A DNA stretch of 64,000 nucleotides, taken from IMG/VR virus record IMGVR_UViG_3300026488_000010. One strand, 5' to 3'. Positions 14,379-32,233 of the stretch are shown one piece after another. Under the pieces are notes generated by a model. That model ran no database searches and was not told the origin of the DNA. It saw only the letters and a list, made by a program, of their open reading frames with translations. The number at the start of each line of letters is the position of its first letter. The stretch's first letter is position 1. A program made the translations under genes and the position numbers. Source of the stretch: a virus.

Positions 14379-14463
14379 TATAATTTTTGTTTATATTTTT
14401 TGATTCTTCTTCGTTTTTAAAAAATATAGTGTAATCTTCATTATAGTTACATCTATTATTCAT
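14368..14463 (-). CDS. 31-aa small ORF below the track cut-off
   Basis: MNNRCNYNEDYTIFFKNEEESKNINKNYNGI; AAAGGA 5 nt upstream; exactly fills the gap between two genes. Confidence 0.4.
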   Translation of the reverse strand: MNNRCNYNEDYTIFFKNEEESKNINKNYNGI

Positions 14464-15250
14464 ATTCATCCTTTATCAATTCTAAAATTTCATCTAGGTC
14501 ATCTTCTATTTGGCACCATTCTTGTTCGTTTCTACCAATTTTATATCCAGCTAATGTTCTAGGATTTATATCTGTAAGTTTATGATGAAATTTTTGAGAC
14601 GTTGAGTATTCATATTCATAGTCATCAGCATTAAATTCAGTGTTGTCAAATAATGATTTATTTTTGAACCAACACGCTACTAGGTATTGTTTAGACTCAT
14701 CTAAAACGGCTTCACCTATCATCTTGAAATGCTCATTATAAAGCGGGCAATATGCGCATTCATATGAATATAATAGAATGTATTGACTCATATTTAAAGA
14801 GCTATAATCATTGTCTATGAGCTCTACACGAGGCACTATATAATCAAATTCTTTTTCAATATCTTTATACACTGAAAAATCTTTTATATCAAATCCAGTA
14901 ATTGAATAGATATATGTATATTTTGGATATAACTTTTTAAGTTGATGTATAATTGCTCTATTTGCAATTATAATTGAGTTGCCTTCTCTATGGTTATCTT
15001 TCAATACTTCGTGCGTTATACTATCGTTAAAATTGATTTTATAATTAGTTAAAGCGAAGCTAATGTTAATTCCACTGCTAGGTGAGTCAACAGTATTAAC
15101 TCGTCCACCGTTCCAAGAACTGCCAACAATACCATCATAAACTTTAATATCGATATCAAGCTCTTTTAATATTTTTCTATTTTTTAATTTCCATAACTTG
15201 TATTGTTTTATATATTTAAAATATGGTACTTCAATGATTAAACTGCTCAT
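14456..15250 (-). CDS. U32 peptidase-like Fe-S protein
   Basis: WNGGR near the N-terminus, YECAYCPLYNEHF, GYKIGRN (FKIEGR-like). Confidence 0.6.
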   Translation of the reverse strand: MSSLIIEVPYFKYIKQYKLWKLKNRKILKELDIDIKVYDGIVGSSWNGGRVNTVDSPSSGINISFALTNYKINFNDSITHEVLKDNHREGNSIIIANRAIIHQLKKLYPKYTYIYSITGFDIKDFSVYKDIEKEFDYIVPRVELIDNDYSSLNMSQYILLYSYECAYCPLYNEHFKMIGEAVLDESKQYLVACWFKNKSLFDNTEFNADDYEYEYSTSQKFHHKLTDINPRTLAGYKIGRNEQEWCQIEDDLDEILELIKDEYE

Positions 15251-16092
15251 ATGAGATCCTTATAATTTTCGCGCATATATTTAGAAACGTTTTCAAAAAA
15301 CCAATAAGAGTAATATAAGTACTCAGCTGCTTCATTTGAAATATCATTATCTTTTAATCTATAAATAATTTCTTTGGGCCTAGTTTTAACTTTCATATAC
15401 ATTTTAATAAAATCTTCTTCGCTTTGTATATGTACTAAATCTTCATTATCCGCGAGTATATAGAACATATCTACATCATACGCATAAAACTGTTCAAGAG
15501 TCTTATCGTAGCGTATACTGTAGTTATTGAAGTTGTTTAGCCATAGTCCTTTATTATAACACTCAATAAGAAATTTTATAAATGATTGGATTATAAAATC
15601 ATCAAACACTAAGTTGTTGAGTTTTGATATAGTATATGGTTTAACATAAATATATTTATCATCTTGCCTATATGTTCCAAACTTCATACAAATATAGTTA
15701 TAATAATTGTCATAACCTCTTTTGTTTTTAACTTTAACATACTCGCCATCGTTATTAAAATAATTATACTCATAGTTGAAGTAATTTAATTCTTTTGTTT
15801 TGTATCCATTTTTAAAGAAATGTATCTTATCTAATGCTGTTTGTTTTTGACTGTAGTTATAAAAATTAAAACCATCTTTATATGAATCCAAATAGAAATC
15901 ATCTATTGGATCAACATTTTCTAAACGCAATGAAACTGATTGAATTAAAAATTTTTTAATGTTACTATTCAAACACATTCCTAAAACGTTCTGACAAAAT
16001 ATTGTATGATCATCAGGTATTATTTGTACCTTTTTTATTTCCATTATTTTTTCCATTTTAAACCTTTTTGATCTTTTTGTATTTATCTCCAT
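15247..16092 (-). CDS. Hypothetical protein, possibly degenerate kinase-like fold
   Basis: GLWLNNFNNYSI...FYAYDVD loosely resembles kinase catalytic and metal loops. Confidence 0.35.
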   Translation of the reverse strand: MEINTKRSKRFKMEKIMEIKKVQIIPDDHTIFCQNVLGMCLNSNIKKFLIQSVSLRLENVDPIDDFYLDSYKDGFNFYNYSQKQTALDKIHFFKNGYKTKELNYFNYEYNYFNNDGEYVKVKNKRGYDNYYNYICMKFGTYRQDDKYIYVKPYTISKLNNLVFDDFIIQSFIKFLIECYNKGLWLNNFNNYSIRYDKTLEQFYAYDVDMFYILADNEDLVHIQSEEDFIKMYMKVKTRPKEIIYRLKDNDISNEAAEYLYYSYWFFENVSKYMRENYKDLI

Positions 16093-17077
16093 AATATATG
16101 CTACAGAATTTATGATTACATGTTAAGCAATCTTTGAATTGTGTAATAGGATCAAGTGATAGATTAACATCAAACATTACATCTCTATCATATAAAAAAT
16201 CCATATCACATCTATAGACTTTTCCATTTGGTGCAAGTAGTAAAGTGTTTTTACCAGCTGAGCATTCATAACCTTTAAAGTTTAAATATCCATGCATTGT
16301 TATATATTCAAATGATACCGATTTATCACCTGTTGAATCTGTTAGGATAAATGGTGTCTCATCTGGATCAACTGTTATATATTTATAATATTTTGAACTT
16401 AAGAACCATTCTGATTCTTGCAAGATGGTTCTAACATATAAAGGAACTTCTAAACTATTAAACATCTTTATTGTTTTAACATGTTCATCAATACCTTCAC
16501 GCGTAATCATATAAGTCATTACATCCATAACTCTTAATTTCTTTAAGAAGTTTATTCTTTTAACTATACCAGCCATTTTAGTAAATTCTTTATGATATGA
16601 GAATGATATAACATATTCACAACCAGCTTCTGTTAGCTCGTCATGGTTCTTTTGGTACTCATGTAAATCCCATTTCATACCATTTGATTGGATAAGAGTT
16701 CTTACCTTCTTTGTGGGATATAATTGATTAATTTTTATAATCATCTCTGTTAGCTTAGGATGCATTGTTGGTTCACCACCATATACAAATAAGAATATTT
16801 CATCCTTTTCATCTGTTCCAAACTTATCTAACATTTTTAAATATTTATCAAATGTTTCATCTGATATATGTTTAGTACTATTATCATGGAAGCAACAATA
16901 AGAACAATCGAAGTTGCAATTATCTGTAGGTTTAAATTCAATTATAAACTTATCAGTGTACTCCAAAGGTTTTAAATAATCAAAATCTTTTACGGTAAAC
17001 TGATTTTCTATAAAGTTTACAAATACTGCATCATCTTTGTTGTCTCCGCTAAATTTATCATATAGGCTCATGGTCAA
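16058..17077 (-). CDS. Radical SAM protein with twitch/SPASM-like C-terminus
   Basis: CNFDCSYC, YGGEPTMHP, CSAG..L.LAPNGKVYRC, CLTCNHKFC. Confidence 0.9.
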   Translation of the reverse strand: MTMSLYDKFSGDNKDDAVFVNFIENQFTVKDFDYLKPLEYTDKFIIEFKPTDNCNFDCSYCCFHDNSTKHISDETFDKYLKMLDKFGTDEKDEIFLFVYGGEPTMHPKLTEMIIKINQLYPTKKVRTLIQSNGMKWDLHEYQKNHDELTEAGCEYVISFSYHKEFTKMAGIVKRINFLKKLRVMDVMTYMITREGIDEHVKTIKMFNSLEVPLYVRTILQESEWFLSSKYYKYITVDPDETPFILTDSTGDKSVSFEYITMHGYLNFKGYECSAGKNTLLLAPNGKVYRCDMDFLYDRDVMFDVNLSLDPITQFKDCLTCNHKFCSIYYGDKYKKIKKV

Positions 17078-18041
17078 TCCTTAAATCATCACAATAAGAA
17101 CATTGCTCACACATACCACCACAATTTCTGATATATGATTTCCATTTTAGTAAATTGATTGGTCCAATTTTCTGTAATATTTTATAATCCTCATCAACTA
17201 TATCATTCATGTAATATATATTTTCTATTATGTTCATTGCTTCTTTAAAGTTTCCAGCAGTGTTTCTACCCTGCAATTTAAATATATCTAATAGTGTATT
17301 ATATTTTTTATACTCACTAAGGAATCCAGGAATTGAATTCCTTTTCATTAATAATTCCATAGGTTGATATTTGGTAGTTGGACAAAAAAGGTTCCCATCA
17401 TAATTATCTTTTTTAACAAGATTATAATGTTTTAATTTGAATGGACAAAACGTTGTACAATCAACATAGTTTGTAACTGTGCCAAATTTTCTAGAACCTT
17501 TTATATTTTGATATTTATCGAAGTTATGAATCACTTCATCATGTATATAAATCATGTCATAATCATCATATTCACCGTTTGATATCTCTTCAAATGTTGG
17601 TAAATTTATAACAGTGTTTTTTACCATAAACTTAAATTGTTTTTTGGATTCAACCAACCATTTTTTATTTGGAACAACTATTATATCAATAAGATCCTGA
17701 TATAATTCTAATGCTCTAAAAGCATGTTCTCTATCGCTTTCAGTAAGTTCAGTATCATTAAAAACTACACATATTTTAATATCTAATTTCTTTACAGCAT
17801 ATAGAAAATTAATTACTGTTGTATTATCAAAGTAATTGTGAGCATTCTCACCGTTCATATCTTTAAATTTTAACATCATAAAATCACTTGAAATATATAT
17901 CTCGTTTATTAATGTTTTGTATTTATTTAACCATTCTATATTGCAACTTTTCTTTACAAAAAACTCTTGTATGTTTATTGGGAAAGAAAATTTTTTGTAA
18001 AATGGGTTTTTTCTAATATTTTTTCCAGTATTGGTCGTCAT
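17058..18041 (-). CDS. U32 peptidase-like Fe-S protein
   Basis: NYVDCTTFCPFKLKHY, FCP, IFKLQGRN, C-terminal CGGMCEQCSYC. Confidence 0.7.
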   Translation of the reverse strand: MTTNTGKNIRKNPFYKKFSFPINIQEFFVKKSCNIEWLNKYKTLINEIYISSDFMMLKFKDMNGENAHNYFDNTTVINFLYAVKKLDIKICVVFNDTELTESDREHAFRALELYQDLIDIIVVPNKKWLVESKKQFKFMVKNTVINLPTFEEISNGEYDDYDMIYIHDEVIHNFDKYQNIKGSRKFGTVTNYVDCTTFCPFKLKHYNLVKKDNYDGNLFCPTTKYQPMELLMKRNSIPGFLSEYKKYNTLLDIFKLQGRNTAGNFKEAMNIIENIYYMNDIVDEDYKILQKIGPINLLKWKSYIRNCGGMCEQCSYCDDLRIDHEPI

Positions 18042-18759
18042 TGTTTATCTCCATTTGTAATACACTTTCTATGAATATTTTATATTTTTTATATAATTTA
18101 TGATCTGTGTTTTTTAACTTATAAAATGATCCTGAGTCTATCATACCATCATAATGAAATAATAATGAATCATTAAGAATGTGTTTTGGATAATATGCAC
18201 CCTTTGTTTGATCAACTAAATCAGTCATCTTTGATAATCTTCTAGAAACTTCTATATCCGAATCTTTTAAATGTTTGAATCTTAAATAGTCCATATCATA
18301 TAACCATCTATTATTTATAGTTACCATCTGGTACCAATTATAATATAGTGTATGGTTTGGTATATCAATATATTCTTTTTCTTTTTCTAGAATATGTTTA
18401 GGTACTTCTTCAATATAAATACAATCTTTATATAATGTATCTAATTTATCCAAAACTATAACATCTATATCAATATATAAAAATTCTTCTAAAATTCTGC
18501 TAAAATAATGCATAGTATAATTTCGTAAAAAATAATTTATTGAATTAGTTGTTACATTAAATTTTAAACTTTCTATAATATTAACATTATATTTTTGTAA
18601 TAATGCTTTTGTTTTTGAACTTATTTTTCTATTAGTGAATATCCCGCAATATATATTTGCAGATGGATTAGTATCTCTAATACTCTTTGCTAATAGTATT
18701 GCCATCTTTTCATAATTTGGTTCATAATCTGATGCCTCAACGCTAAATACTATATTCAT
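18013..18759 (-). CDS. GT-A glycosyltransferase (GT8-like)
   Basis: ILLAKSIR, FLYIDIDVIV (DxD), LFHYDG. Confidence 0.7.
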   Translation of the reverse strand: MNIVFSVEASDYEPNYEKMAILLAKSIRDTNPSANIYCGIFTNRKISSKTKALLQKYNVNIIESLKFNVTTNSINYFLRNYTMHYFSRILEEFLYIDIDVIVLDKLDTLYKDCIYIEEVPKHILEKEKEYIDIPNHTLYYNWYQMVTINNRWLYDMDYLRFKHLKDSDIEVSRRLSKMTDLVDQTKGAYYPKHILNDSLLFHYDGMIDSGSFYKLKNTDHKLYKKYKIFIESVLQMEINNDDQYWKKY

Positions 18760-18768
18760 ACAATTCCT

Positions 18769-19641
18769 TTAAAAATTAAAAATGTCAAATAATCTGTCAT
18801 GTGCTTTATAATTAACATTAACTGTTGCCCCATTAATAAACATAACTGATTTTTGTAGCGCTGCTATCAATTCTTTATCTATTATTTCATCAAAGATTGG
18901 TACAAGTAATTCAAAATGATCATCATACAAATTTAATAGTTTTGTATCAATTTTTGGAATTTTTAATCTAAATAAAAGCCCTGTATGATCAATGATTTTT
19001 AATTTACCATCAATTAACAATACGTTACCTTTTATATTTGAAATCCACATATACATAATAGGTGATCCAATATCATATGATGCTAATTGTTTATATAATT
19101 TTTGTAATAAATTTTTGAATCGTGGTTTAGTTAGATCGTTAAATGTTACATCAGGACCTTGTAAATTTTCTGATATGAAATAACCGTTTTTATATTCTAA
19201 ATTATTTACAACAGGGCTTGAATTTGATAATTTTAATAGTTCTGATATATATAATTGATATTCAGTTTCCCATGAAACACCAATTTTTGATACTGCAAGT
19301 TTTTTCCACTCATAAAACGTATCAATAATAAATGATAAATCAATGTCTCGTTTTTTTTCTAATTTTTTTAATCTTTTGATGGGATTGTGTATCCAAGTAT
19401 CTAATATACTTTCTATGCACCCTTCAGAAATTGCGTTAATTCGTTGTTTATTATAATGATCAATAATATATTCTTCTGATTTATAAATATTGTTTTGATA
19501 CACAAAATAATTGCTTGTAGTGTTCTCCAATATTTCAATATTATGAACATCTTCGTCTTTTAGATCAAAAGCATCCATGAATCTCTTTAATTCTACTCGT
19601 AATTTAATATCTTCAATTTTTTTAGATTCTGTTAAAATCAT
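18769..19641 (-). CDS. Kinase-like (APH/RIO-type) fold protein with atypical catalytic loop
   Basis: YFISENLQG, SNIKGNVLL, LKIIDH. Confidence 0.45.
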   Translation of the reverse strand: MILTESKKIEDIKLRVELKRFMDAFDLKDEDVHNIEILENTTSNYFVYQNNIYKSEEYIIDHYNKQRINAISEGCIESILDTWIHNPIKRLKKLEKKRDIDLSFIIDTFYEWKKLAVSKIGVSWETEYQLYISELLKLSNSSPVVNNLEYKNGYFISENLQGPDVTFNDLTKPRFKNLLQKLYKQLASYDIGSPIMYMWISNIKGNVLLIDGKLKIIDHTGLLFRLKIPKIDTKLLNLYDDHFELLVPIFDEIIDKELIAALQKSVMFINGATVNVNYKAHDRLFDIFNF

Positions 19642-19857: not shown

Positions 19858-20691
19858 TTAATCATTGTGAATCCAATTTTCCATTCCAAAATAACAGTAC
19901 TCATATATGCATTGAATAATTTTTGGTTCATATTTATAGTCAGATAAATATGAACCATCTATATCTCTAATCATTGATACAAAGCAGTCATATACTTTAT
20001 TATTTTGTATATGTAATGTATTGAATTGTGTCTTACATAAATAATTTTTTGAAGACATGTTATCTTTCCATATATCATAATTTGATAATTTGTCCGGCTG
20101 CTCATTATGTTGTTTTTTAAAATGATAGTCTTGTTTGATGTCGTCAAATATTTTTTGATGTTCTAATGTTCTCAAATGTTTTGTACTAGGAGCAGATGAT
20201 GTGCTAGAATTGATGATTGGGCAAAATTGAACATTTTTAAATATTTTTTTTAATTTAAAATATTCAGAATAGTCCGCATCTTCGTGACCCATATATGCTA
20301 TCTCATTCACAAGTTTTGATGACACATTTTTTACAAATTCTTTTAAAGTTGTTGATTGGGAATGATATGAATAATTGATTTTGCAATGATCATATACGGG
20401 ACTATTGAAAACTTCTGGATTTGATCCATTTGTTTGAATAATAATCTTAACTTTTGATTGCTTATATTGCTTTAAATGTTTTACAATTGAATCCAATCCT
20501 GGATATAATGTTGGTTCTCCACCATATATAAATACTTCATTATCTCGCTGATTGTGGTTATATAACTCATTTAATAAATTATCTAAACCAATCATATCAA
20601 AAGCTAATAACGCTTTTGAATTATCATGCATATCTGTACAGTAATTACAATTATAATTACAAGTTTCATTTAATCGTATTTCTATTCTCAT
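19858..20691 (-). CDS. Radical SAM protein with twitch-like C-terminus
   Basis: CNYNCNYC, YGGEPTLYP, QTNGS, CIYEYC. Confidence 0.9.
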   Translation of the reverse strand: MRIEIRLNETCNYNCNYCTDMHDNSKALLAFDMIGLDNLLNELYNHNQRDNEVFIYGGEPTLYPGLDSIVKHLKQYKQSKVKIIIQTNGSNPEVFNSPVYDHCKINYSYHSQSTTLKEFVKNVSSKLVNEIAYMGHEDADYSEYFKLKKIFKNVQFCPIINSSTSSAPSTKHLRTLEHQKIFDDIKQDYHFKKQHNEQPDKLSNYDIWKDNMSSKNYLCKTQFNTLHIQNNKVYDCFVSMIRDIDGSYLSDYKYEPKIIQCIYEYCYFGMENWIHND

Positions 20692-20705
20692 AATGTTACT
20701 AGTCC

Positions 20706-21635
20706 TTATTTTTCTTTTTTTATTTTTAATAATCCATCACATGAACAATAATCGAATGGGCATCTTTTAGGTTCAATGCTATCAATATTCTGAAAATATT
20801 TTTTAATTGGATGTTTTTCCGTATCAAAGCATAATTGACCAACTCTGCAATCCAAACCTATTTCATAATTATTATTCCAACATTTCCAGTCTTTAAACAT
20901 GTTGATTTTACTTTCAAATATTTCTGTATCTGTTTTATAAAATTCTTTTCTATCTTTATCGATAAAGATAAACTCTTTATAATCTCGTTCTTTTAAGTAC
21001 TCAAATTCTTTATAGAACTCTTTAGAATAACGAACATTCTTGTGCTGATCAATATAAATATAATGTGGATGAACTTCAATATTATCATATCTATCTAACA
21101 TCATTATCATCCGTTGAATACGTTTCCAGTACTCTTTTTTTGGATGCAACATAACATTGACTTTGATACGATAACCTTTATTTTGCATTATTAATATATT
21201 TTTGAGAAAAGTTTTATCAGATTCGTCATCAGCATATTCAACATGGTAACTAAACAGTGTATACATTTTAGAGTTAGATTTTTGACAATCTTCGAAAAAG
21301 TTTTGCTTCGAACCATTAGTTGTTATATATAATCTAGAATCTTTATGAGTTAAAACTTTTTCTTCTATCAATTTTATCAATTTATGATATCTATGATGTG
21401 ATGTTGGTTCTCCACCCAATAGTCCTAGAAATATTGGAAGTTTTGCTTTTGATAATTCTTCAATAACTTCTAACTGTTTTGTCCAATTCCCTGGACGCAT
21501 CCATGAATCTTTATACTGTTCAGTTGCATAACAATAAGAACATTTATATTCACATACTGTTGTTATATCCCAATGAATATATAATCGTTGAACTTTGTGT
21601 CCTTCTCCCAGTTGTTTTATAAACATATTTTCCAT
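20706..21635 (-). CDS. Radical SAM protein with twitch-like C-terminus
   Basis: WDITTVCEYKCSYC, LGGEPT, TTNGS, CPFDYCSCDG. Confidence 0.9.
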   Translation of the reverse strand: MENMFIKQLGEGHKVQRLYIHWDITTVCEYKCSYCYATEQYKDSWMRPGNWTKQLEVIEELSKAKLPIFLGLLGGEPTSHHRYHKLIKLIEEKVLTHKDSRLYITTNGSKQNFFEDCQKSNSKMYTLFSYHVEYADDESDKTFLKNILIMQNKGYRIKVNVMLHPKKEYWKRIQRMIMMLDRYDNIEVHPHYIYIDQHKNVRYSKEFYKEFEYLKERDYKEFIFIDKDRKEFYKTDTEIFESKINMFKDWKCWNNNYEIGLDCRVGQLCFDTEKHPIKKYFQNIDSIEPKRCPFDYCSCDGLLKIKKEK

Positions 21636-22228
21636 CTTAAATCCTTGTTCAGACTCGCATCTGATATATTATCTTTACCATCTTTAGTCTGAACCCAACA
21701 ATATTTTTTAATTAATTTTGATGATTTCATATTTTGAATAATTTCAAGATACAAATTATAATCATTATCTAACGCGTTCCCTGTTGGAAATTTGGTCACT
21801 GTAGATCTCTTAAAAAATAATTGTGATAATTGAAAAGTACTATTTATTTTTGGTAACATAAACTCTTTTTTTCTCTCTTCAATAGCCTCTAAAGTATTCG
21901 ATAATTTAAAGTTTAAAAAATTAAGATCTTTTTCAAAATCAATATCGTCCCAAAAATCTAAACTAAAATCATCATCTTCCAAATACCAGACATATTTAGA
22001 TGATGATTTATCAAATAAATATTTATAAATAATAGATAAATCATCAGATTTTATATACGAATATTCTATATATAAATCTGTTAATATCTCTTCTATATCA
22101 TCACTATCATTATTAACATAAATTTTTACTTCTGCTCTTAGATGGTCAGGTATTGTATTAATTAAAGATGAAATACATCTCTTAAATAAATGTGGTCGAT
22201 TATGTGTTAGTATTAAAATATCAATCAT
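21617..22228 (-). CDS. Family 2 glycosyltransferase
   Basis: ILILTHNRPHLFKRCISSL, YVWYLEDDD, DNDY. Confidence 0.75.
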   Translation of the reverse strand: MIDILILTHNRPHLFKRCISSLINTIPDHLRAEVKIYVNNDSDDIEEILTDLYIEYSYIKSDDLSIIYKYLFDKSSSKYVWYLEDDDFSLDFWDDIDFEKDLNFLNFKLSNTLEAIEERKKEFMLPKINSTFQLSQLFFKRSTVTKFPTGNALDNDYNLYLEIIQNMKSSKLIKKYCWVQTKDGKDNISDASLNKDLRWKICL

Positions 22229-23226
22229 GAATTAACCTTATAATGTAAAACATTTTTATATTTTATATCATCCTTTGGTACTAGCACAGCATCAACATTA
22301 TTAAATTCAACACCATCACAAATATATAAATCAGAACATTTAAAACATTCTGCTTTTTTTACATATGTTACTAATCTGTTATTTTTCGCGATATCAAAAA
22401 GTTCTTCCTTTGATGGAATACTCTTTGGGACACCATTAAATGTTGAAATATTCCAATCACTATCATCAAATATTTGCTGATATGTTCCATAACAATATTG
22501 TTCATAACCTCTCATAAAACATAAAGGTATATATCGAACATTAATTTTAATATCATATTTTTTTATTATATCAATAAAAGATTTTATTGCAATCGATGTT
22601 TCTAAATAATTGATATGCTCATTAGCATCTGACCATGAATTTACAGGTAATATATTTATCTGATCAGGCATTGTATCTATAATAAACTTTGAATAATTAA
22701 TCATATCATCTAAAAATAATTCATTCACTGTACAATTTATTCGAACTTCCATTTGTAATTGTTGTGCATTCTTAATGGCTTTTTTAATCTTGCAAAAAGC
22801 ATTCTTTGACTGTACAATCTCATCATGTTTATCTTCAAGATTGTGGACACTAAATAATATATCAGTCAATCCCATAAAATTCGATTTGATTATAAACTCT
22901 TCGTTGCTGAACATTGATCCATTCGTAACTGTAGATATTTTCATATGCTTTGGAATATAGTTTAATATATCAAACCAGTTAGTATGTATTGATGATTCTC
23001 CACCTGATAATTCAATCTCTGTAAATCCAGCAAGTACTATGGAATCTATATCATTTTTAATATCTTCAAAAGATTTTTTTAAATGTAATTGATCTATATA
23101 ATAACAAAAAGAACATTTATAATTACAGTTTGTACCTGTATTTAATTTTGCTCTTTTATTATGGATAAGTGCTGGTGATTCTTTAGCATCAGGTAAAAAC
23201 ATTTTATTATATAACATATTAATCAT
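22225..23226 (-). CDS. Radical SAM protein (HxsC-like C-terminal Cys cluster)
   Basis: CNYKCSFC, SGGES, VTNGS, CFKCSDLYICDG. Confidence 0.9.
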   Translation of the reverse strand: MINMLYNKMFLPDAKESPALIHNKRAKLNTGTNCNYKCSFCYYIDQLHLKKSFEDIKNDIDSIVLAGFTEIELSGGESSIHTNWFDILNYIPKHMKISTVTNGSMFSNEEFIIKSNFMGLTDILFSVHNLEDKHDEIVQSKNAFCKIKKAIKNAQQLQMEVRINCTVNELFLDDMINYSKFIIDTMPDQINILPVNSWSDANEHINYLETSIAIKSFIDIIKKYDIKINVRYIPLCFMRGYEQYCYGTYQQIFDDSDWNISTFNGVPKSIPSKEELFDIAKNNRLVTYVKKAECFKCSDLYICDGVEFNNVDAVLVPKDDIKYKNVLHYKVNS

Positions 23227-24115
23227 TTAAAATATCCTTTATAATATTAATTATTTTATCATCATCTTGTAATTGTAAATCTGTATGTTCTAAATCTAAA
23301 ATACGATTTCGTAAACCTAAATCAATATCTAAATAATCTATAACTTCTTGAGTGTATTGAACATCAATTCCAAAATATTTACATTCAACAATAAATCTAG
23401 GAGAACAATCCCATTTCGCATCTATCGGTGTGTAAACATATTTATTAAATCTTTCAAATAAATTATCAACAGGTGCTCTAAGATTTTCGACATTTTTATA
23501 GTTTCCAAAATTTGATATAACTATTTTATCACCTGGAATACGATCAATAGACTCTTGACTAATATATCGACAATTTTCAGTAGCATATATTAATGTTTTA
23601 TTATCATGTCGTGTCGGCTTCTTCAATCTTTTAAGATCAATCATCTTAATATAATTTATATGTTTAGATGTTTGATATGCACTCTGGTCTAATAGAATAT
23701 GGTAGTTTGGTTTATCAATATCTATAACCTTTTTATCCCCACATGCAAACATAAAAACATTATCCATTAATAATGTACAATGTTTTTGAATATTGGTTAT
23801 CGCACCATCTGTAAAAAATATATTAGTGCCTCTCAATAATTTTGGCGAATCTAAAAAAATGGTGTTTGATAATAGTTCTTCTAATTCATTATCAGATATC
23901 AGGTACTTATCAAGTATTGCTTTTGTAAATGTTTTTTTATCTAAATCGCACATCAATATTGCAACAGAAATGTGCTTTTTCAAAAGGTTATAATAATCAA
24001 TAACTTCAAAAGTGTGCCCACATATACCGTGCTTAACGGTGCTCCAGGAATATGTTAAATATAAATTATATTCATTTAAAGTTTGTATGCTTGATTTCAT
24101 GCTTGATTTTTTCAT
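23219..24115 (-). CDS. GT-B-fold glycosyltransferase-like protein
   Basis: DCSPRFIVECKYFGIDV resembles the GT-B nucleotide-sugar binding motif; paralogue of 24702..25502. Confidence 0.45.
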   Translation of the reverse strand: MKKSSMKSSIQTLNEYNLYLTYSWSTVKHGICGHTFEVIDYYNLLKKHISVAILMCDLDKKTFTKAILDKYLISDNELEELLSNTIFLDSPKLLRGTNIFFTDGAITNIQKHCTLLMDNVFMFACGDKKVIDIDKPNYHILLDQSAYQTSKHINYIKMIDLKRLKKPTRHDNKTLIYATENCRYISQESIDRIPGDKIVISNFGNYKNVENLRAPVDNLFERFNKYVYTPIDAKWDCSPRFIVECKYFGIDVQYTQEVIDYLDIDLGLRNRILDLEHTDLQLQDDDKIINIIKDILND

Positions 24116-24702
24116 ATTATCTCCGAATTAAATATGTCATTTGTGTCACCAATTAAATGTTTTATATCTTGTGGTCGTATATATCGTTTATATTCTTTTA
24201 AGATTTTAAATATATTTTTTTTACTTAAAAAACTTTTTGATCCAATATTTAATGCTGCGTCTAATCGCACATAAATGTTTTTAGATGCAGCAAAATTAAT
24301 AAAGGTTTCTAGATTTTTGATATTGTTATTATCTATTACTACAGTGTATTGTACTTTATGATCAGGATCGTCAACAATATCAACATCTATTAAATTTTCA
24401 GAACAGTGATAAATATATGAATCAATTAAATGATAATATATATTATATCTTTTAAGGAACATACCATTAGTTGTAACATTTATTATACTTTTTTTATCAA
24501 TCAATATATCAAATATTTTTCGCATTTGAGTATCATCTACTAAACCAGGTTCCCCACCTGTAATCGTAACTTTTGAATATTCTTTAATACTTTTTAATGA
24601 ATTGAGAACTTCATTATCATTGATTGATCGCTTATTGTGTGTGTCAACTATACAATACTGACACTTCCAGTTGCATTCAAATGTGATAGGAACACAATAC
24701 AT
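24112..24702 (-). CDS. Short radical SAM protein (196 aa)
   Basis: CNWKCQYC, TGGEPG, TTNG. Confidence 0.85.
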   Translation of the reverse strand: MYCVPITFECNWKCQYCIVDTHNKRSINDNEVLNSLKSIKEYSKVTITGGEPGLVDDTQMRKIFDILIDKKSIINVTTNGMFLKRYNIYYHLIDSYIYHCSENLIDVDIVDDPDHKVQYTVVIDNNNIKNLETFINFAASKNIYVRLDAALNIGSKSFLSKKNIFKILKEYKRYIRPQDIKHLIGDTNDIFNSEII

Positions 24703-25502
24703 TAGGTGCTCCTAGCAGTCATAGCAACTATCATTTTATCTGATTCATCTATTGTATAATCTTTTAGACCATTTCTTTTAATATCATTATATCTGATTAT
24801 AGTTGAGTCAATAATATCTGTTTCATTCTCTATTATTAATTTAGTATCATAATAAAATGCTTCTGGAATTATTCTATTATTTGTATCGAGCATCTGATGA
24901 ACATATAATATAGTGCAGCATTCTTCAAATATTGATATTGATTTATCAAGATGTTTTAATATAACATTTTTTAAATTATATTTTTTTGTGTACTCTTTAA
25001 TATTTAATTGTTCTGGTACTCGACTAGATATGAATGTTTTAGTTCCCGATGATTGAATATCTTTCATAATATCAAAATTTAACTTTAACTTACATTTAAT
25101 ATCAAAATCTTGATAATCATATTCACCATAAAATATTACTTGTTGTTTCTTCGGCATCATATAACTATGAGACTCATTACTATACACATGCATAGGGCAT
25201 TGTAAAAAACAATATACCTCGTGATATGTTCTGAGATCTAATATTAATGCTTTATTTATTCTGATATTATATAAAGATGTTGTCGTAGTACTTTTGAACT
25301 TTTTAAATAAGTGCTCAATGTTTTTATATTTATTAGAAAACGATCTTTTAAGATCGTTTAGATCTTGATCATTTATATTTACTAATAAAAATTCTAAGTC
25401 TGGATCGTTTTGTGATAAATATGCAAAATATTCAAAAGCATAATAGACTGAACCATTATACTTTTGATGAACATACCATTTGTATATTACTACATTTTTC
25501 AT
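24702..25502 (-). CDS. GT-B-fold glycosyltransferase-like protein
   Basis: DTNNRIIPEAFYYD; N-terminal NGSVYYAFEYF matches CGHTFEVIDYY of 23219..24115. Confidence 0.45.
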   Translation of the reverse strand: MKNVVIYKWYVHQKYNGSVYYAFEYFAYLSQNDPDLEFLLVNINDQDLNDLKRSFSNKYKNIEHLFKKFKSTTTTSLYNIRINKALILDLRTYHEVYCFLQCPMHVYSNESHSYMMPKKQQVIFYGEYDYQDFDIKCKLKLNFDIMKDIQSSGTKTFISSRVPEQLNIKEYTKKYNLKNVILKHLDKSISIFEECCTILYVHQMLDTNNRIIPEAFYYDTKLIIENETDIIDSTIIRYNDIKRNGLKDYTIDESDKMIVAMTARST

Positions 25503-25514: not shown

Positions 25515-26120
25515 TTATTTTGAAGACGTTAACGTCTTAATGATTTCAGAATAAATCTCCAGGACCTGTTCTTGTGATGTTGCATCTTTCATATCTCTAT
25601 AAAAAGTCATGTATAACTCTTCTAAATAAGAGCTACGAGCAATAACATCACGAGCATTTAAATATTCTTCAAGTTTATCAATTAACAATTCATCTTCTGT
25701 TTCCAAGATTTGCAGATAAACTTCTTCTTTATTATCATCATGGATAAAATAACCTTTATCACATAAAGTATTATTAATATTAATATATTGATACATCATG
25801 AGACCAGAAGTGTTTGCTTGTTGGTGCGATACCATTTGGCGAGCTTTTTTCATATATATCATTTTCTGAGATGATAGATCATCAGTATCTGGTTCAATGA
25901 TAATTAAATCATGTTCCTGTACATCAATACCCTGATAATCCGAAACGATTCTTACAAGTTTATTAGCATTCATTGCGATTCTAATAGCGACATCTGCTGT
26001 TTGACTCAAACCTAAGAATCTATTATTTTTTTCAAAATCTTGTGTTAAAGAGCTACTAATATACTCAACTTCATAATATTTGCCGTGGTCAATTACCGCA
26101 GCTACACTGTATACCATCAT
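25515..26120 (-). CDS. Hypothetical protein cotranscribed with the Cys-repeat gene
   Basis: ORF track, AAGGA RBS. Confidence 0.7.
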   Translation of the reverse strand: MMVYSVAAVIDHGKYYEVEYISSSLTQDFEKNNRFLGLSQTADVAIRIAMNANKLVRIVSDYQGIDVQEHDLIIIEPDTDDLSSQKMIYMKKARQMVSHQQANTSGLMMYQYININNTLCDKGYFIHDDNKEEVYLQILETEDELLIDKLEEYLNARDVIARSSYLEELYMTFYRDMKDATSQEQVLEIYSEIIKTLTSSK

Positions 26121-26130
26121 TTTTTATTCC

Positions 26131-26976
26131 TTAAAAATCTAATAGATCTTTTAATAGATCATATCTTACACCGTAAAAACCAGTTACTGTTTCTACAACA
26201 TATTCTGCTAATCCTAATTCAATTAGCTCTTGAGCCATTACCCCAACTTGTTTACCAGAATCTAAAATTAATTCTGAATATTCATCTTTATATTCATACT
26301 CGTAGATTGGAACATATTTACCATCAAGTTTTCTAGTACATATATATGTAATATTTTTCTTTAATCTCATATCAGAGTAATGACACCCACAATCAGTATT
26401 ACACACACATTGAGAATTACATGAACAATCAGAATTACATAAACATTGTTTGGATATTTGTTCAAACTTTGTAATGATTTCATTGTGATAAGACATTTTA
26501 ATTTTTGTATTTCTATCAATACTTGATACATTCGATGTTACAGACATATATGTATTTAAAGTATTGATAACTTCAGCAACCGCTTGCCAATGTGATAACG
26601 ATATCTTTGAACCACTTGTTGCATTAAATGATGCTACTGTTGCATAAAAGTTGCCATTACCACCAGACATTGACCAATTCTCTTGTAAAGAATTTACTGC
26701 AAATTTTAAAGCATTAATATCTTTATGACTAATTTTGATATTAGTTCCAGATGCAAAAGATAATGAAGGCCAACCTGTGGTATTTGTACCATGATGTTGA
26801 GTACATGTAATATTAACTTCATATGTATCCTCAACATAGTTTGTACCATGTCCTTTAGTTACAGTCCAAGCTGATGCGGGACTTACTCTCCCAGCATCAA
26901 CCCTTCCTGTAACCGCACTAGGTGTTTTTGTATGTGTCGGTGTACTTGTACTTGTAATACCATCATTAAATCCCAT
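26131..26976 (-). CDS. Virion-type protein with (CxCNxx)4 repeat and C-terminal peptidase S74 intramolecular chaperone
   Basis: CLCNSDCSCNSQCVCNTDCGCHY followed by SDMRLKKNI...IYEYEY...GVMAQE...VRY. Confidence 0.85.
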   Translation of the reverse strand: MGFNDGITSTSTPTHTKTPSAVTGRVDAGRVSPASAWTVTKGHGTNYVEDTYEVNITCTQHHGTNTTGWPSLSFASGTNIKISHKDINALKFAVNSLQENWSMSGGNGNFYATVASFNATSGSKISLSHWQAVAEVINTLNTYMSVTSNVSSIDRNTKIKMSYHNEIITKFEQISKQCLCNSDCSCNSQCVCNTDCGCHYSDMRLKKNITYICTRKLDGKYVPIYEYEYKDEYSELILDSGKQVGVMAQELIELGLAEYVVETVTGFYGVRYDLLKDLLDF

Positions 26977-26986
26977 TATAATTCCT

Positions 26987-28117
26987 TTATTTTCGTAGTT
27001 TTAAATATCTTTGAACAGTTCTATCAATTAAACCAAAAAGTTTATACACTTCACATAAATCATCTTTAGGATCATGATAAGCTTCTTCATAACTTTTATC
27101 AGATACTTCAACATTTATAATTGGGCATTGATAACATACAGTAGCTGAACAGCCTTTACAATGTTCGGGTAATATCAATAATTCTTTATGTTTTTTGTGA
27201 GAAGTCATTACAGACTCAGCAATATTATCAACACTACCAATTATGAATTCTTCTTTTTTATCTACATATAGTGCACCATGACATACTAACATATTACCAT
27301 CTAAATCAATATTTGCAATATTGATTCCAGCTGTACACATTGCTCGATCACCTGTACCAAACCATGTGAATAAAAATTTACCATTTTCTTCAAAGTATTT
27401 AATTTCTCTTTTTGCCAATTCTGTAAAATCTTTTTCTAATTTATCTAATAACTTTTGTTCTATTAAATATTTGTTAGTGTATTCTATAGTAGGTGACCAT
27501 GAGATCCAAGGTAATTCTTTAGATAATTCATAATAATGTTCCCAATGTTTAACAATATTTGGTAACTCTTCAACAGGTAAAGTTCCTTTAATTGAGAAAT
27601 TAATTTCTGGAAAATTCGAACTTAAATATTTAATTGAGGACAATACTCGTTGTTGAGTGCCTTTACCTGAATGGTCCACTCGATACTTATCATGACCAAT
27701 ACCATCATAAGATACTTGAAATGAAAATCTCGAATCATCTATACCATATTCTCGAAATTTATAAATTATTGATGATATAGTTAAAGCATTTAATCCATTA
27801 GTGTAAAAAAAGAAATCAATAGGGTCATTTTTATATGCTTCCAATACTTCAAATATTAATTTTGTATTTAGAGTAGGTTCCCCACCCCAGAAGTCCAATG
27901 TTATTCCATTATATTCTTTTTGGAACTCTGCATCAATGAGCAAATCATTAATTATTTTAATAATATCTAGATCTTGTTTTTTTGTGTTTTGAAGTTCTTC
28001 TCCTTCAAAACAATAAGTACATGCCATATCACATTTCTGAGTAGTTGTGACTTCGAGTGCAAAATATTTTTTTGTAGGCAATGGTCCTGCTTTATTTATC
28101 ATAGGATCATTTATCAT
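26987..28117 (-). CDS. Radical SAM/SPASM maturase-like protein
   Basis: CDMACTYC, FWGGEP, CTAG...DLDGNMLVCH, CKGCSATVCYQCP, LCEVY. Confidence 0.9.
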   Translation of the reverse strand: MINDPMINKAGPLPTKKYFALEVTTTQKCDMACTYCFEGEELQNTKKQDLDIIKIINDLLIDAEFQKEYNGITLDFWGGEPTLNTKLIFEVLEAYKNDPIDFFFYTNGLNALTISSIIYKFREYGIDDSRFSFQVSYDGIGHDKYRVDHSGKGTQQRVLSSIKYLSSNFPEINFSIKGTLPVEELPNIVKHWEHYYELSKELPWISWSPTIEYTNKYLIEQKLLDKLEKDFTELAKREIKYFEENGKFLFTWFGTGDRAMCTAGINIANIDLDGNMLVCHGALYVDKKEEFIIGSVDNIAESVMTSHKKHKELLILPEHCKGCSATVCYQCPIINVEVSDKSYEEAYHDPKDDLCEVYKLFGLIDRTVQRYLKLRK

Positions 28118-28377
28118 TATTGTTCACCAAAAATATTAGCTAAAATTGTATCATATGTTTTATCATCTAATTTTGTTTTATCAATTGCTGCATTGTTTGC
28201 AGACACAGTTAATGTTTTAAATGCCTCTGTTGTAAAATTTAAAATATTTTTTGATGTTTGTTCAAACCCGGCAGCCTTAAATAATAAACCGGCCTCTAAT
28301 ACATGTTGTATCGCACCCTGAATCAACTGCTCATGAGTTACTTCTACTTCTTCTACTTCTTCTATCTCATCATTCAT
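28117..28377 (-). CDS. Small acidic helical protein
   Basis: ORF track; EEVEEVEV start. Confidence 0.65.
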   Translation of the reverse strand: MNDEIEEVEEVEVTHEQLIQGAIQHVLEAGLLFKAAGFEQTSKNILNFTTEAFKTLTVSANNAAIDKTKLDDKTYDTILANIFGEQ

Positions 28378-28913
28378 TATATTTTTCCTCTTAATGTTTC
28401 TTGTATTAAATCTAAAGTGTATTTATCTTGTTTAATTATTATATGTTGTATATCATTAATTTCTAAGAATTGTTTAATCTTATTATCTAATTCTTTCGCT
28501 TCAACAATATCTTGACTTCTACCACCTTCAAAGAATCCATATAATGCTGAACGTTCTAAAAAAATATTTAAATTGTTATATCTATTATATTGTTCAATCA
28601 TAAAATCATTGAATTCAACATGTGCAATATGATTAGCATCACAATAATTTAGTCCCATGACAAATGGTGAATCATGAACTGCTACTTCAACGCAACGATC
28701 CAATCTCTTCATACGACGATGTTGCTCACCTGCAACATGTAACTGATCATTTAATAATTCATATGATTCATCATATATTAACTCTTTAGCATATTCTTGG
28801 GTCATATCAGCATCTATACCTTTCTTTTTTAATAAAGATGTTAACTCCATTGCAAGTGTGGATTTACCAACACCTGGACCGGCAAAGAAATTTATATGTA
28901 ACGCATTTTTCAT
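28377..28913 (-). CDS. P-loop NTPase/nucleotide kinase (NadR/AAA_28-like)
   Basis: GPGVGKST Walker A, EYAKEL, HDSP. Confidence 0.8.
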   Translation of the reverse strand: MKNALHINFFAGPGVGKSTLAMELTSLLKKKGIDADMTQEYAKELIYDESYELLNDQLHVAGEQHRRMKRLDRCVEVAVHDSPFVMGLNYCDANHIAHVEFNDFMIEQYNRYNNLNIFLERSALYGFFEGGRSQDIVEAKELDNKIKQFLEINDIQHIIIKQDKYTLDLIQETLRGKI

Positions 28914-28922
28914 TATTTATCC

Positions 28923-28958
28923 TTCTACTATCTTTTACTATCTTTTACTATCTTCTAC
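28923..28958. repeat. 10-bp tandem repeat (tt(c/t)tactatc) x3.6 across a stop codon
   Basis: Read directly; includes the stop of 28938..29945. Confidence 0.85.
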
Positions 28959-29945
28959 AAATAGTTTAATTAAATGTGTGCCTGTTTCTTTTAATAGTAA
29001 TTTTAACTCAGCATCAATACCTTTATATATTGTACATAATTCCGAAATTACTCCACCATTTTTTACTTGTTCAAAAATACATCCTTTATGACATGTGTTT
29101 TTAATTTTACACGAATTGCATTGATCTAAATAATCATTTCCAAAATTCTTTTTAAATTTTAAATAAACACTATCATCTCTTAAAAATCTTTCACATGGTA
29201 TTATATCTTTACTCTTTGGAGAAATCGCAAAATATTTAATACCTGCTTGACAATTAGTTTTTTGATACCCAGTATAAGAATATTCAATTATTGGACTAAG
29301 ATATGTTTTAATTAATCCAGGTAATTGATTATAAGTTGTGCATTGCTTGATCATTGGTATCATATAATTAATATAATTTCGAAAATCAATTATAAAATAT
29401 TCTGATTGTAAAGCATTCCATGTACCCATGTCACGGACAAGTGTTACATCAATAGTTAATAATTCTGAATCAAACATCTTTTGAAAACTTTTTTCTAAGT
29501 TTATAAGATAATTACTATGCAATTTAAAATCACCACCAACAACCATACAATGTATTCTAGCATTATGTGATAGATATTCTTTAGCAAAAACTTTTTTTGT
29601 ACCTCTATGAACTTCTTGATTTTCACCATCATGCGATATTGTTATATTTACTTTAGGATTATTTATTATATCAATAACCCTAGAATTATAAATTGTACCA
29701 TTTGATGTTATATTTATTTTTTTACAATTATCAATTTGTAATTTCTTGATGATATATTCAACATCATCCAAATTTAAAAATGGTTCCCCACCAAATATAT
29801 CAAATACAAATTCTTCATGTTTAATTGATAATAATAATTCATCAAAATCTGATAACGATATTTTATTTTTATTATTCACATCAATATCACAATATGTACA
29901 ATTCATATTACACTGCTCAGATAAAACATAATGATACGTCTTCAT
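28938..29945 (-). CDS. Radical SAM/SPASM maturase-like protein
   Basis: CNMNCTYC, FGGEP, CQAG...IIPCERF, CNSCKIKNTCHKGC, LCTIY. Confidence 0.9.
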   Translation of the reverse strand: MKTYHYVLSEQCNMNCTYCDIDVNNKNKISLSDFDELLLSIKHEEFVFDIFGGEPFLNLDDVEYIIKKLQIDNCKKINITSNGTIYNSRVIDIINNPKVNITISHDGENQEVHRGTKKVFAKEYLSHNARIHCMVVGGDFKLHSNYLINLEKSFQKMFDSELLTIDVTLVRDMGTWNALQSEYFIIDFRNYINYMIPMIKQCTTYNQLPGLIKTYLSPIIEYSYTGYQKTNCQAGIKYFAISPKSKDIIPCERFLRDDSVYLKFKKNFGNDYLDQCNSCKIKNTCHKGCIFEQVKNGGVISELCTIYKGIDAELKLLLKETGTHLIKLFVEDSKR

Positions 29946-29964
29946 GACTTTCCTTTTACTTATT

Positions 29965-30119
29965 ATTTCTATATTAACTCAAAACGATCTTTAAAGATCG
30001 TTGTATTTCTATGCTAACTTTTCTATCTTTAAAGATCATTTTGTAAACTGTCGATATACTAACGATATACAACACTATCTGAACTATAGATTTTAAAACG
30101 ATCTTTAAAGATCGTTTTA
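29965..30119. promoter_or_regulatory. Cluster of the palindromic element (three cores, two ATTTCTAT modules)
   Basis: atttctatattaactc + aaaacgatctttaaagatcgtt; atttctatgctaact + ttctatctttaaagatc; perfect 26-bp palindrome at 30094-30119. Confidence 0.8.
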
Positions 30120-30139
30120 TTTGAAATCAAGGACAAGAA

Positions 30140-30162
30140 TATAAGACGCTTAGCGTCTTATA
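30140..30162 (-). terminator. Terminator hairpin at the end of 30158..32233
   Basis: tataagacgc-tta-gcgtcttata, then TTCTTGTCCTT on minus. Confidence 0.8.
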
Positions 30163-32233
30163 CTTTTACTTCTACTTCGTTACAGAATTCATCTTCTATT
30201 GAATTAGATAATGCAACTCCAACCAAATCCATTCTTTTATCAAGACTTAATTGTTTTAATTGTTTTTTATTTATACCAATAACATAACCTAGATCATCAT
30301 CATCTGGAAATATATAATCACCTTTTGATATAAATTGTTTTGTTTTAACAGGTACTCTTCCAGATAAAGCTATAAAAATATACCCATGATCTTTGAATCC
30401 ATCCCCAAACGATGTTTTATCATTAAGTTCTAAACCTGGGTTTGTACTAACAATACCAGCTAAAGGTAAATCTGGATCATACAACGTAACTTCTTTATCT
30501 CCACCAAGAGATAATAATGTTCCAGGTGCATAATCTAAATCACTTAAATAATTTTCAGCAACATCGCCATAATATGCAGATGTTGCTACACCGTTAAATT
30601 TATCAGCGGTCATTTCATAACCACCAGCATCAACATCACAATTGATATCTAATCGTGTACCATTAATTGTTTGAGACCCTGTACTAGAACCAAGAGTATT
30701 AGCCCCTTTAAGATTAGCGCCACCCTTTGATGTTAGATAACCTGTTAAATTTGTCTCATCAGTAACTGTTAACACACCTGTTACATCTAAATTACCATCA
30801 ACTGTTAAAACATCTGTAACTGTTAAGTTACCGTTTGCTGTATGATTTTGTGTCCCAGTAGTCGCAGCATCACCATATGTTATCTCACCATGCAATTCAA
30901 TGTTTCCATATACCGTTAAATTTTGTGCATCATCAGTTGCACCAATAACAACAGGCCCACCTAATAAATCAGCACCATCATCTTTAACTATGAGTTTTTT
31001 ATCAAATGTACCAGAACCCTTTACAACTAGATTCCCATCATCGGTTGTAATATCACCTTTTTTGGTATATATTGCACCCTCTGTTGTAATATTTAATCCA
31101 CCATTTTTTGTTTGGAATCCAGAATCAACAAAACAATGACCGCTTGATGAATCAATGTCTCCTGTAACTTTTAAATAACCATTTTGTGTTTCAAAATTAC
31201 CAATAGTTGCGAAATATCCAGTTGCGTCTGTATGATAACCTGCAGTACATGATATAGACCCATTTGCTGTTTCAATGTTACCAACAGTTGTTTTAATTAT
31301 ACCGTCGCCTGTTGTGATACTACCAGTATCAGCGCTAAAACCTACAGATGTTGTATGAACTCCTGTACTTGCATTAACGTGTCCGCTATCAATTTCAAGT
31401 GAACCACTAGTGCTATGAATATCCAAAGTACATTCTAATCCACCACTTGCTGTATCAAAGTCACCTGATGTTGCTTTATATCCACCACTGTCAGTGATAT
31501 ACCCAATCTTGACCGTGCTTTTACCTGCGGTGCTCACAAAGTTACCATTAATAGTTAAAGAATTTTCTGTATTAGAACTAGACGTTATTTTAGCAACACC
31601 GTTCTTAACTTCAAAATCTGTCTGTACTGTTAAATCACCTGTACAATAAACCTTCTGATAAAGATTAGAATCACCTAAAACAATAGAAGTCTTTGGAGCA
31701 TCCAAAGATAACATTGTACCATTTAAATAATTATATGATGCGTTATCATCTACAATATAAACCCATGGTCTTTCAGCTAATGTGTTTGCACCTGAATAAC
31801 CAGTTTTAAATCCTGACACACTATCAATTACAGGTGTATAAATAGGACCAGTAAAATATGATAAATATTGTAATCTTTCATTATCTATTTGATCTCTAAT
31901 AAACTGATCATTTCTTTTATAATCTTTTGTTAATGTTCCAATAACATGATAGTTATTAGCGAGCTCTGAAAATGCAAATGATTTTAGATTATCAACATCA
32001 ACTTGTGTCTTAACACTTTGAACTTTAAGCTCTTCAACTTCATCGGCAATTTCAGATTGCAATGTGTTTAATTTAATCGATAACGTTGCCTCATTGTTTT
32101 GGATAGATGCTCTTGATTCTTCCAAATTTCTATCTGTACTTAATTCTAATTCATATAAATTAACTTTAAGTTCTGCAGCATTAAAGCTTTTTGCATTTAA
32201 TGTTGCGATCTCTTGTAATATTGATTTTGCCAT
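30158..32233 (-). CDS. Tail fibre/spike with C-terminal peptidase G2-like intramolecular chaperone
   Basis: Coiled-coil N-terminus, Gly/Thr beta repeats, ATSAYYGDVAENYLSDLDYAPGT...GIVSTNPG...IALSGRVPVK. Confidence 0.75.
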   Translation of the reverse strand: MAKSILQEIATLNAKSFNAAELKVNLYELELSTDRNLEESRASIQNNEATLSIKLNTLQSEIADEVEELKVQSVKTQVDVDNLKSFAFSELANNYHVIGTLTKDYKRNDQFIRDQIDNERLQYLSYFTGPIYTPVIDSVSGFKTGYSGANTLAERPWVYIVDDNASYNYLNGTMLSLDAPKTSIVLGDSNLYQKVYCTGDLTVQTDFEVKNGVAKITSSSNTENSLTINGNFVSTAGKSTVKIGYITDSGGYKATSGDFDTASGGLECTLDIHSTSGSLEIDSGHVNASTGVHTTSVGFSADTGSITTGDGIIKTTVGNIETANGSISCTAGYHTDATGYFATIGNFETQNGYLKVTGDIDSSSGHCFVDSGFQTKNGGLNITTEGAIYTKKGDITTDDGNLVVKGSGTFDKKLIVKDDGADLLGGPVVIGATDDAQNLTVYGNIELHGEITYGDAATTGTQNHTANGNLTVTDVLTVDGNLDVTGVLTVTDETNLTGYLTSKGGANLKGANTLGSSTGSQTINGTRLDINCDVDAGGYEMTADKFNGVATSAYYGDVAENYLSDLDYAPGTLLSLGGDKEVTLYDPDLPLAGIVSTNPGLELNDKTSFGDGFKDHGYIFIALSGRVPVKTKQFISKGDYIFPDDDDLGYVIGINKKQLKQLSLDKRMDLVGVALSNSIEDEFCNEVEVKV

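Follow-up and report, generated by a model that had tools for sequence, protein, structure and literature searches.

The Cys-array locus and its gene set

The window analysed here is the whole 64,000-nucleotide stretch of the virus record IMGVR_UViG_3300026488_000010; it comes from a jumbo phage with AT-rich DNA (longest contig 286,633 bp), and nearly all of its genes lie on the minus strand. It carries two genes for radical S-adenosylmethionine (radical SAM) enzymes, here named rSAM-A and rSAM-B, beside a gene for a protein with a dense cysteine array (the Cys protein) and a gene for a 201-aa partner. Upstream of the Cys-protein gene, the gene order is rSAM-A, kinase, small protein and rSAM-B (Table 1). 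An earlier interpretation made from the DNA letters alone (the sequence-only reading) was partly supported: the two radical SAM/SPASM genes, the small acidic protein and the P-loop kinase that it had placed upstream were all confirmed. This reading did not include the 201-aa partner, two GT-B proteins or a variable downstream radical SAM/sugar cluster.

In the Cys protein, Cys178-Cys198 (26383-26445) place eight Cys within 21 residues as CxCxxx hexads, as previously noticed, and the chance of such a Cys run anywhere in the window proteome (Cys 0.95%) is ~2e-7. The earlier description of a (CxCNxx)4 repeat held for the four CxC pairs, whereas the units are three CxCNxx followed by C-G-C-H-Y and not four identical ones; codon divergence among the four units shows that the array is not a DNA tandem duplication. 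The three helical repeats also stood, the quoted motifs starting at residues 81, 124 and 158, each ahead of a predicted helix (84-102, 127-144 and 161-175, respectively). The AlphaFold model of the protein (76 homologues; mean pLDDT, or predicted local distance difference test score, 81) has three helices and an S74 fold, and fold searches with the helical part gave no significant relative (best Z 6.4, generic helical bundles). The proposed S74 chaperone with a Ser/Lys(+5) dyad was verified: Pfam Peptidase_S74 (PF13884) matched residues 201-259 (E 1.6e-8; 35.1 bits against a gathering threshold of 22), and Ser201/Lys206 are spaced like the dyads endoNF S911/K916 and MyRF S587/K592 (PMC8326128).

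The Cys protein belongs to a large unannotated family, 249 representatives of which were found by profile search at E <=1e-10, and the array was present in 114 of the 155 family proteins inspected. Two array classes were found, the hexad class of this phage and a heptad class. A Cys-free profile of the hexad helical region matched 40 of 76 heptad proteins (E <1e-3) and scored 18.7 bits with CPT_0180 of the Campylobacter phage CP220, the best of 1,520 decoys scoring 10.0; hexad and heptad proteins thus form one family. When the Cys protein of the window was compared with cultured phages by tblastn, matches fell in the S74 part only, and the relationship to CP220 was found via the enzymes and the partner rather than by this search. 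Extreme arrays of 52-80 Cys occur beside the same enzymes in loci L091-L094, L034 and L043, and a C-H-S-N tetrad repeat takes the place of the Cys array in L137.

Dozens of phages carry this gene set, as do chromosomes of predatory Halobacteriovorax. Among the Cys-protein loci from IMG/VR, 14/14 have an rSAM-B homologue directly upstream and 13/14 have rSAM-A, and heptad loci, found by DNA pattern, have the same enzymes, often plus a third. In the reverse test, which took 64 non-identical rSAM-B loci with enough flank, a Cys array lies within 7 kb in 58 and within 100 bp in 34; around the 64 loci, rSAM-A was found in 48, the 201-aa partner in 48 and GT-B genes in 39, and the six array-less loci are three short fragments and three related large phages. 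The sequence-only reading had named homologues mostly devoid of radical SAM neighbours as an outcome that would speak against it, and the reverse was found. In a quick IQ-TREE tree of rSAM-B, from which rows without an array or shorter than 330 aa were left out, array class (hexad/heptad) changes 2 times compared with a shuffled mean of 19.7, both this tree and the linkage counts being inflated because kin share labels and because the enzyme profile derives from array-linked loci.

The system is real, conserved and undescribed in the searchable literature, for any virus; searches on phage radical SAM/SPASM proteins with Cys-rich fibres, and on the motifs, returned nothing relevant, most subscription papers being out of reach. 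A portable protein-maturation cassette is its best explanation.

The enzymes and the predicted thioether ladder

In both rSAM-A and rSAM-B, CxxxCxxC and seven invariant C-terminal Cys align with the SPASM domain of CteB, with a non-canonical CX2CX4CX2C spacing in rSAM-B; the Pfam SPASM model itself matched neither enzyme. The ranthisynthase CteB is the top solved structure for both enzyme profiles (E 1e-26 and 4e-36), in line with the kinship to thioether-forming SPASM enzymes proposed beforehand. The first cluster Cys stands at residue 29 and 12 in the two enzymes, leaving no room for an N-terminal RiPP recognition element (RRE; RiPP, ribosomally synthesised and post-translationally modified peptide). 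The small 86-aa protein matched no PqqD/RRE model and no family, and no RRE match was found with the model of the 201-aa partner. Judged from their sequences, the enzymes belong to no curated family, because they have no RRE and score below the family cut-offs.

Among 86 distinct hexad arrays, position +3 counted from the leading Cys of a pair holds N/H/D/Y/F in 343/344 cases, and that counted from the second Cys holds D/V/N/I/Q/H/Y in 258/258; Gly, Ala and Ser occur 0 times at +3, and Gly occurs 97 times at spacer positions. The absence of Gly at +3 makes a turn requirement unlikely, and the presence of Tyr, Phe and Val makes metal ligation unlikely. The pattern would fit a need for an abstractable C-beta hydrogen, that is, Cys-to-C-beta thioether acceptors, and its conservation leads us to predict two interleaved registers of i to i+3 thioethers, at most seven in all. 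Residue 199 is N/H/D/F in 90/91, and Tyr200 is kept in 90/91, also where S74 is lost. An acceptor-first (NxxC) register is disfavoured, since it would leave residue 199 unexplained and require residue 177, which is D/N in only 68/91; a Cys-first register is preferred on this pattern, though not proven.

From the observed sequence features, co-occurrence, co-segregation and conservation pattern, we infer that the array is the substrate, and we propose its chemistry, register, location and glycosylation as follows. What the RRE-less enzymes recognise may be the helical domain in its folded state, the small protein and/or the 201-aa partner serving as adaptor. rSAM-A and rSAM-B would abstract C-beta hydrogens and make Cys-S-to-C-beta (ranthionine-type) links at 178-181, 184-187, 190-193 and 196-199 in register one and at 180-183, 186-189 and 192-195 in register two, giving up to 7 links (-14 Da), each enzyme possibly making one register. 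S74 would help the 281-aa protein to fold, trimerise, and sever itself from the rest ahead of Ser201; the remaining 200 residues, with the Cys array and Tyr200 at their end, would be the product, which the GT-B pair and variable radical SAM/sugar genes may decorate further. That the enzymes act on the array by whatever chemistry appears highly probable from the sequence evidence, and we assign a probability of roughly 0.6 to their stapling it by thioethers.

By analogy, the most likely mode of action is that of CrpC/CrpA or of a ranthipeptide system, with a folded protein as the substrate, precedent being established both for S74 autocleavage and for thioether formation by SPASM enzymes on proteins with Cys repeats. 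CrpC/CrpA of Methanococcus voltae (TIGR04463; PMC13692751) likewise has a SPASM radical SAM enzyme beside a protein with a C-terminal Cys repeat, and CrpC puts ranthionines on this protein with its C-X-X-Q/D motifs. That system is archaeal, with thioethers shown, a single RRE-bearing enzyme and a 17-residue repeat, in contrast to the two RRE-less enzymes, CxC hexads, optional S74, partner and GT-Bs found here; the CrpC paper does not mention phage. The ranthipeptide maturases CteB/CteA (SCIFF), PapB/PapA (freyrasin), NxxcB and QhpD/QhpC provide the closest solved structure and profile and share the seven-Cys SPASM, the His after the AuxI Cys (rSAM-B), Asn/Asp near Cys and an adjacent gene for a Cys-rich protein (here the presumed substrate) with putative acceptor residues. 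The present system differs from them in having no RRE or leader peptide, a folded protein as substrate and a predicted +3 rather than the +4 spacing of PapB. The CXXX-repeat system (TIGR04114-04119) is similar in its two maturase genes, small associated protein and Cys-repeat target, though the Cys spacing here is 2/4 or 2/2/3 and not every fourth residue. Membership in it was rejected, as 0/76 and 0/7 arrays and 0/18 small proteins matched its models and the radical SAM score was 62.4 against 350; one Atlas cluster carries a TIGR04114-type Pfam at 13%.

Apart from the inflated counts noted above, several observations weigh against thioether stapling. One acceptor position can carry Val/Ile, which is not among the classical acceptors, and chemistry is not fixed by SPASM similarity (PMC10288494). 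PapB was the best NCBIfam model for both enzymes, with 94.8 and 65 bits against a cut-off of 340, and scores for other families were also below cut-off (SCIFF, 58/34 against 425; TIGR04463, 39 against 525). At six active-site proximity residues taken from PMC10288494, rSAM-B has F,W,Y,S,H,G, rSAM-A has D,F,T,S,E,R and CteB has F,F,T,S,H,Q, so only 3/6 are shared with CteB in each enzyme. PapB, CteB, QhpD and CrpC use an RRE, unlike rSAM-A and rSAM-B. Furthermore, no Cys array was found, nearby or by pattern, in the three related large phages (L108, L110 and L111; 168-357 kb), in which the rSAM-B homologue has 450-480 aa.

The radical SAM pair might instead act on the array with other chemistry, such as conversion of Cys to an aldehyde (anSME-like), links or decarboxylation at the terminal Tyr, epimerisation, or the making of sites for a GT-B-attached sugar built by radical SAM enzymes. 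The linkage and tree data serve this explanation equally, and it would agree with the conservation of Tyr200 even without S74, with the ranking of anSME, TigE-like and ChlB entries after CteB among solved relatives, and with the frequency of GT-B genes and of an adjacent UDP-sugar dehydrogenase-like gene in homologue loci. However, His (CteB His363) follows the AuxI Cys in 31/31 rSAM-B, where anSME has its catalytic Asp, the anSME model scored 52 against 349 bits, and no sulfatase gene was seen nearby. Tyr is not C-terminal in every homologue, and C-beta acceptors explain the +3 pattern more simply; we thus consider other chemistry unlikely.

Alternatively, the array might be an unmodified metal- or Fe-S-binding or disulfide tract, comparable to HxH fibre sites or metallothionein, with the radical SAM pair serving a neighbouring sugar or small-molecule pathway. 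The CxC repeats and N-terminal Cys/His motifs resemble metal sites, the array is unstructured in the apo AlphaFold model (pLDDT <50), many other radical SAM and sugar genes are adjacent, and Fe-S assembly genes flank one cellular copy. This explanation has to contend with rSAM-B, which abuts the array gene and tracks array type while accessory genes vary, and it leaves Tyr/Phe and the lack of Gly at +3 unaccounted for, making it rather improbable, though metal binding could follow partial modification of the array.

The S74 domain and the location of the product

Of the 114 array proteins, 96 run on into S74-type SDxxxK sequence and 16 end at most 8 residues past the last Cys, typically directly after C-[NH]-Y. 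This end of many homologues coincides with the predicted S74 cleavage site, which supports the earlier suggestion that cleavage leaves the array at the end of the protein. Among the 96 S74-type tails, 31 are stubs, 30 of them exactly 12 residues long with Ser and Lys retained, and in five loci inspected the remainder, with the conserved motif, is a separate gene immediately behind the Cys gene. The mature end C-x-C-[NH]-Y thus stays the same whether S74 is fused, split off or gone. Loci with split S74 are L113:8156-8713, L101, L084, L046, L109 and L136. In L136/L037, four tandem stub-bearing paralogues are followed by one S74-like gene, and this single gene suggests S74 action in trans. In the rSAM-B tree, S74 presence changes at least 15 times (a count without a shuffle baseline), and S74 can be a separate gene; the earlier view of S74 as a follower peptide needed by the enzymes is therefore not upheld.

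S74 marks trimeric surface fibres of phages and Bdellovibrio (PMC10769870). S74-processed fibres (endoNF, T5 pb1 and Bdellovibrio MAT proteins) share the C-terminal S74 and the SDxxxK dyad with the Cys protein, whereas in the latter a Cys array instead of a beta-helix lies ahead of the site, and S74 is often split or absent. The Campylobacter phages CP220, CPt10 and IBB_35 (Firehammervirus; PMC2853527, PMC3322345) have homologues of rSAM-B, rSAM-A and the partner, which in CP220 are CPT_0184 (28%), CPT_0023 (22%) and CPT_0015, respectively, with CPT_0180 as the Cys protein, and the heptad protein lies four genes from rSAM-B. In contrast to the window, the genes are dispersed, and the heptad array is in a 534-aa protein without S74. 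The 11-12 radical SAM genes of these phages were published in 2010 as highly unusual and presumed metabolic (PMC2853527), and in both papers radical SAM genes are unexplained or metabolic, with no substrate proposed. The IBB_35 heptad homologue, gene 3-9, is homologous to the Cys-protein family outside the Cys tract and is listed in the virion mass spectrometry table with 2.6% coverage (PMC3322345 Table S2), which is weak but direct evidence for location in the particle; the low coverage and the distance of this 534-aa homologue count against leaning on it.

The chromosome of Halobacteriovorax sp. CON-3 carries the whole cassette intact, without S74, amid housekeeping genes, and no phage genes were recognised within about 18 kb of it. 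The cassette was found in 7/401 genomes searched, namely CON-3, five similar genomes of the same phylum and one rearranged Bdellovibrionales copy, and chorismate-pathway genes adjoin it in five of the six Halobacteriovorax-type chromosomes. The cellular rSAM-B fall within the phage hexad clade, which suggests that the cellular copies may have been captured from phages. Halobacteriovorax-type cassettes (L145, L226, L227 and L237-L241) carry accessory radical SAM, DegT, epimerase and deacetylase genes; ahead of rSAM-A these loci have a variable gene of 170-220 aa, and the CON-3 cluster includes a prepilin-type gene. The Bdellovibrionales copy (L228) adjoins suf-type Fe-S assembly genes.

The intact chromosomal cassettes show that the system is not virion-only, which tells against a particle role as the whole account. 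With the same chemistry, the product might be non-structural, a soluble or released RiPP-like effector or metal handler, with S74 a folding aid gained and lost. The S74-free cassettes in six chromosomes, five of them beside chorismate-pathway genes, the lack of phage genes around the one chromosome inspected widely, the small size of the product and the lack of a clear fibre fold in searches with the Cys-protein model point in this direction, whereas S74 as a fibre marker, gene 3-9 in virions and a core without protease or exporter point away from it; we regard a non-structural product as a less likely outcome. A minor particle protein is the fairly probable nature of the phage product, and the Halobacteriovorax product is probably a surface protein. 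The tip of a trimeric virion fibre, as placed by the sequence-only reading, is unproven, with S74 and the one weak proteomics record for it and the phage-free chromosomal copies and the fold searches without a clear fibre match against it.

In its most far-reaching form, to which we give a low probability, the cassette may represent a widespread phage-borne, predator-domesticated pathway in which an RRE-less SPASM pair gives a particle or cell-surface protein a ladder of interleaved thioethers and a GT-B pair and swappable radical SAM/sugar module then decorate it, yielding a variable host-contact tip made by enzymes. If the best explanation is true, phages would mature one of their own proteins by RiPP-type radical chemistry, of which no report was found, and some of the radical SAM genes of Campylobacter group II phages, for which the papers found offer no explanation to date, would gain a substrate and purpose. 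It would also add a family of two-enzyme maturases that need no RRE and act on a folded protein, and link phage particles to the surfaces of predatory bacteria. These proposals are testable in the cultured phages CP220, CPt10 and IBB_35 and the Halobacteriovorax isolates CON-3 and GB3.

Partner, GT-B proteins and accessory genes

The 201-aa partner and both GT-B proteins belong to the core. The partner nearly always adjoins the Cys gene and has a confidently predicted fold (pLDDT 92), though fold and profile searches found no clear relative and no Pfam match; it may be a chaperone or adaptor. A weak Foldseek row with the Pam3 fibre complex (E 0.17) was gone on a second look, and a role as a tail-fibre assembly (Tfa-like) chaperone is a lead. 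Complex prediction with three Cys-protein chains (75-200) and three partner chains scored 0.00, uninformative either way. GT-B-type proteins 1 and 2 are paralogous (probability 98.3), and the model of protein 2 reached template modelling (TM) scores of 0.60-0.66 with GT4 clusters; both are assigned a GT-B fold and are putative glycosyltransferases.

The kinase, listed with the upstream genes in the sequence-only reading, was rejected as a core member, since it occurs in 2 loci in all, the window and one other. The cluster might, with the Cys protein as a bystander, hypermodify phage DNA, as T4 DNA glucosyltransferases use the GT-B fold (a weak feature match) and a nucleotide-kinase-like gene is present. 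Considering that this kinase is not conserved, that the enzymes are of peptide-maturase type, and that array linkage is strict and kept in bacterial chromosomes, DNA hypermodification is very improbable.

Table 1. Features of the window, with positions numbered from its first nucleotide
Feature	Position	Strand	Description
Terminase	45324-47336		In the window
Terminator-like hairpin	30138-30164	-	Ends upstream structural gene; palindromes follow before rSAM-A
rSAM-A	28938-29945	-	335 aa; radical SAM, canonical seven-Cys SPASM, no RRE; opens the unit
P-loop kinase (AAA_28)	28377-28913	-	Pfam; passenger
Small acidic helical protein	28117-28377	-	86 aa; between both enzymes, conserved in hexad loci; no family match
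rSAM-B	26987-28117	-	376 aa; radical SAM/SPASM, without N-terminal RRE
Cys protein	26131-26976	-	281 aa; presumed substrate; predicted mature form, residues 2-200 (21.5 kDa)
Cys58-x-x-His61	26794-26805	-	Conserved; remnant of the family's N-terminal Cys/His motif
Three helical units, residues 81-175	26452-26736	-	Homologous across hexad and heptad classes including CP220 CPT_0180, Cys tract unused
Cys array 178-198 and His199-Tyr200	26377-26445	-	Four CxC pairs; putative acceptors at +3 from each Cys
S74 intramolecular chaperone/autoprotease	26134-26376	-	9.5 kDa, Ser201/Lys206 dyad; optional in family
201-aa partner	25515-26120	-	Beta N-domain and helical C-domain; conserved; homologue CP220 CPT_0015
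GT-B-type protein 1	24702-25502	-	Paralogue of 23219-24115
GT-B-type protein 2	23219-24115	-	GT4-like predicted fold
Co-transcribed accessory genes	19858-24702	-	Short radical SAMs: 24112-24702, 22225-23226, 20706-21635, 19858-20691
GT2	21617-22228	-	Within the accessory genes
Variable tailoring region	9005-19641	-	Radical SAM 16058-17071, sugar-nucleotide dehydrogenase- and epimerase-like genes, AstE-like hydrolase

Downstream of the terminator-like hairpin, genes are packed nearly gap-free from 29945 to 19858, and a promoter scan of the window locus gave no more than shuffled background. Clusters related to the variable tailoring region go with the core in other loci, and accessory radical SAM, GT2 and sugar genes vary by locus; that the short radical SAMs, GT2 and sugar-pathway genes target the same Cys protein is a conjecture. 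Two Cys-containing proteins of the accessory region (14456-15250 and 17058-18041) had no Pfam match. An amidinotransferase-like gene is reported for the interchangeable five-radical-SAM module of CP220/CPt10, and such a gene is present in accessory clusters at L011:19330-20367, L021:11351-12436 and L239:3666-4760. A 24-bp palindrome occurs in several copies at 29946-30157 upstream of rSAM-A, and a related palindrome lies at about 25335-25370, within the gene for GT-B-type protein 1.

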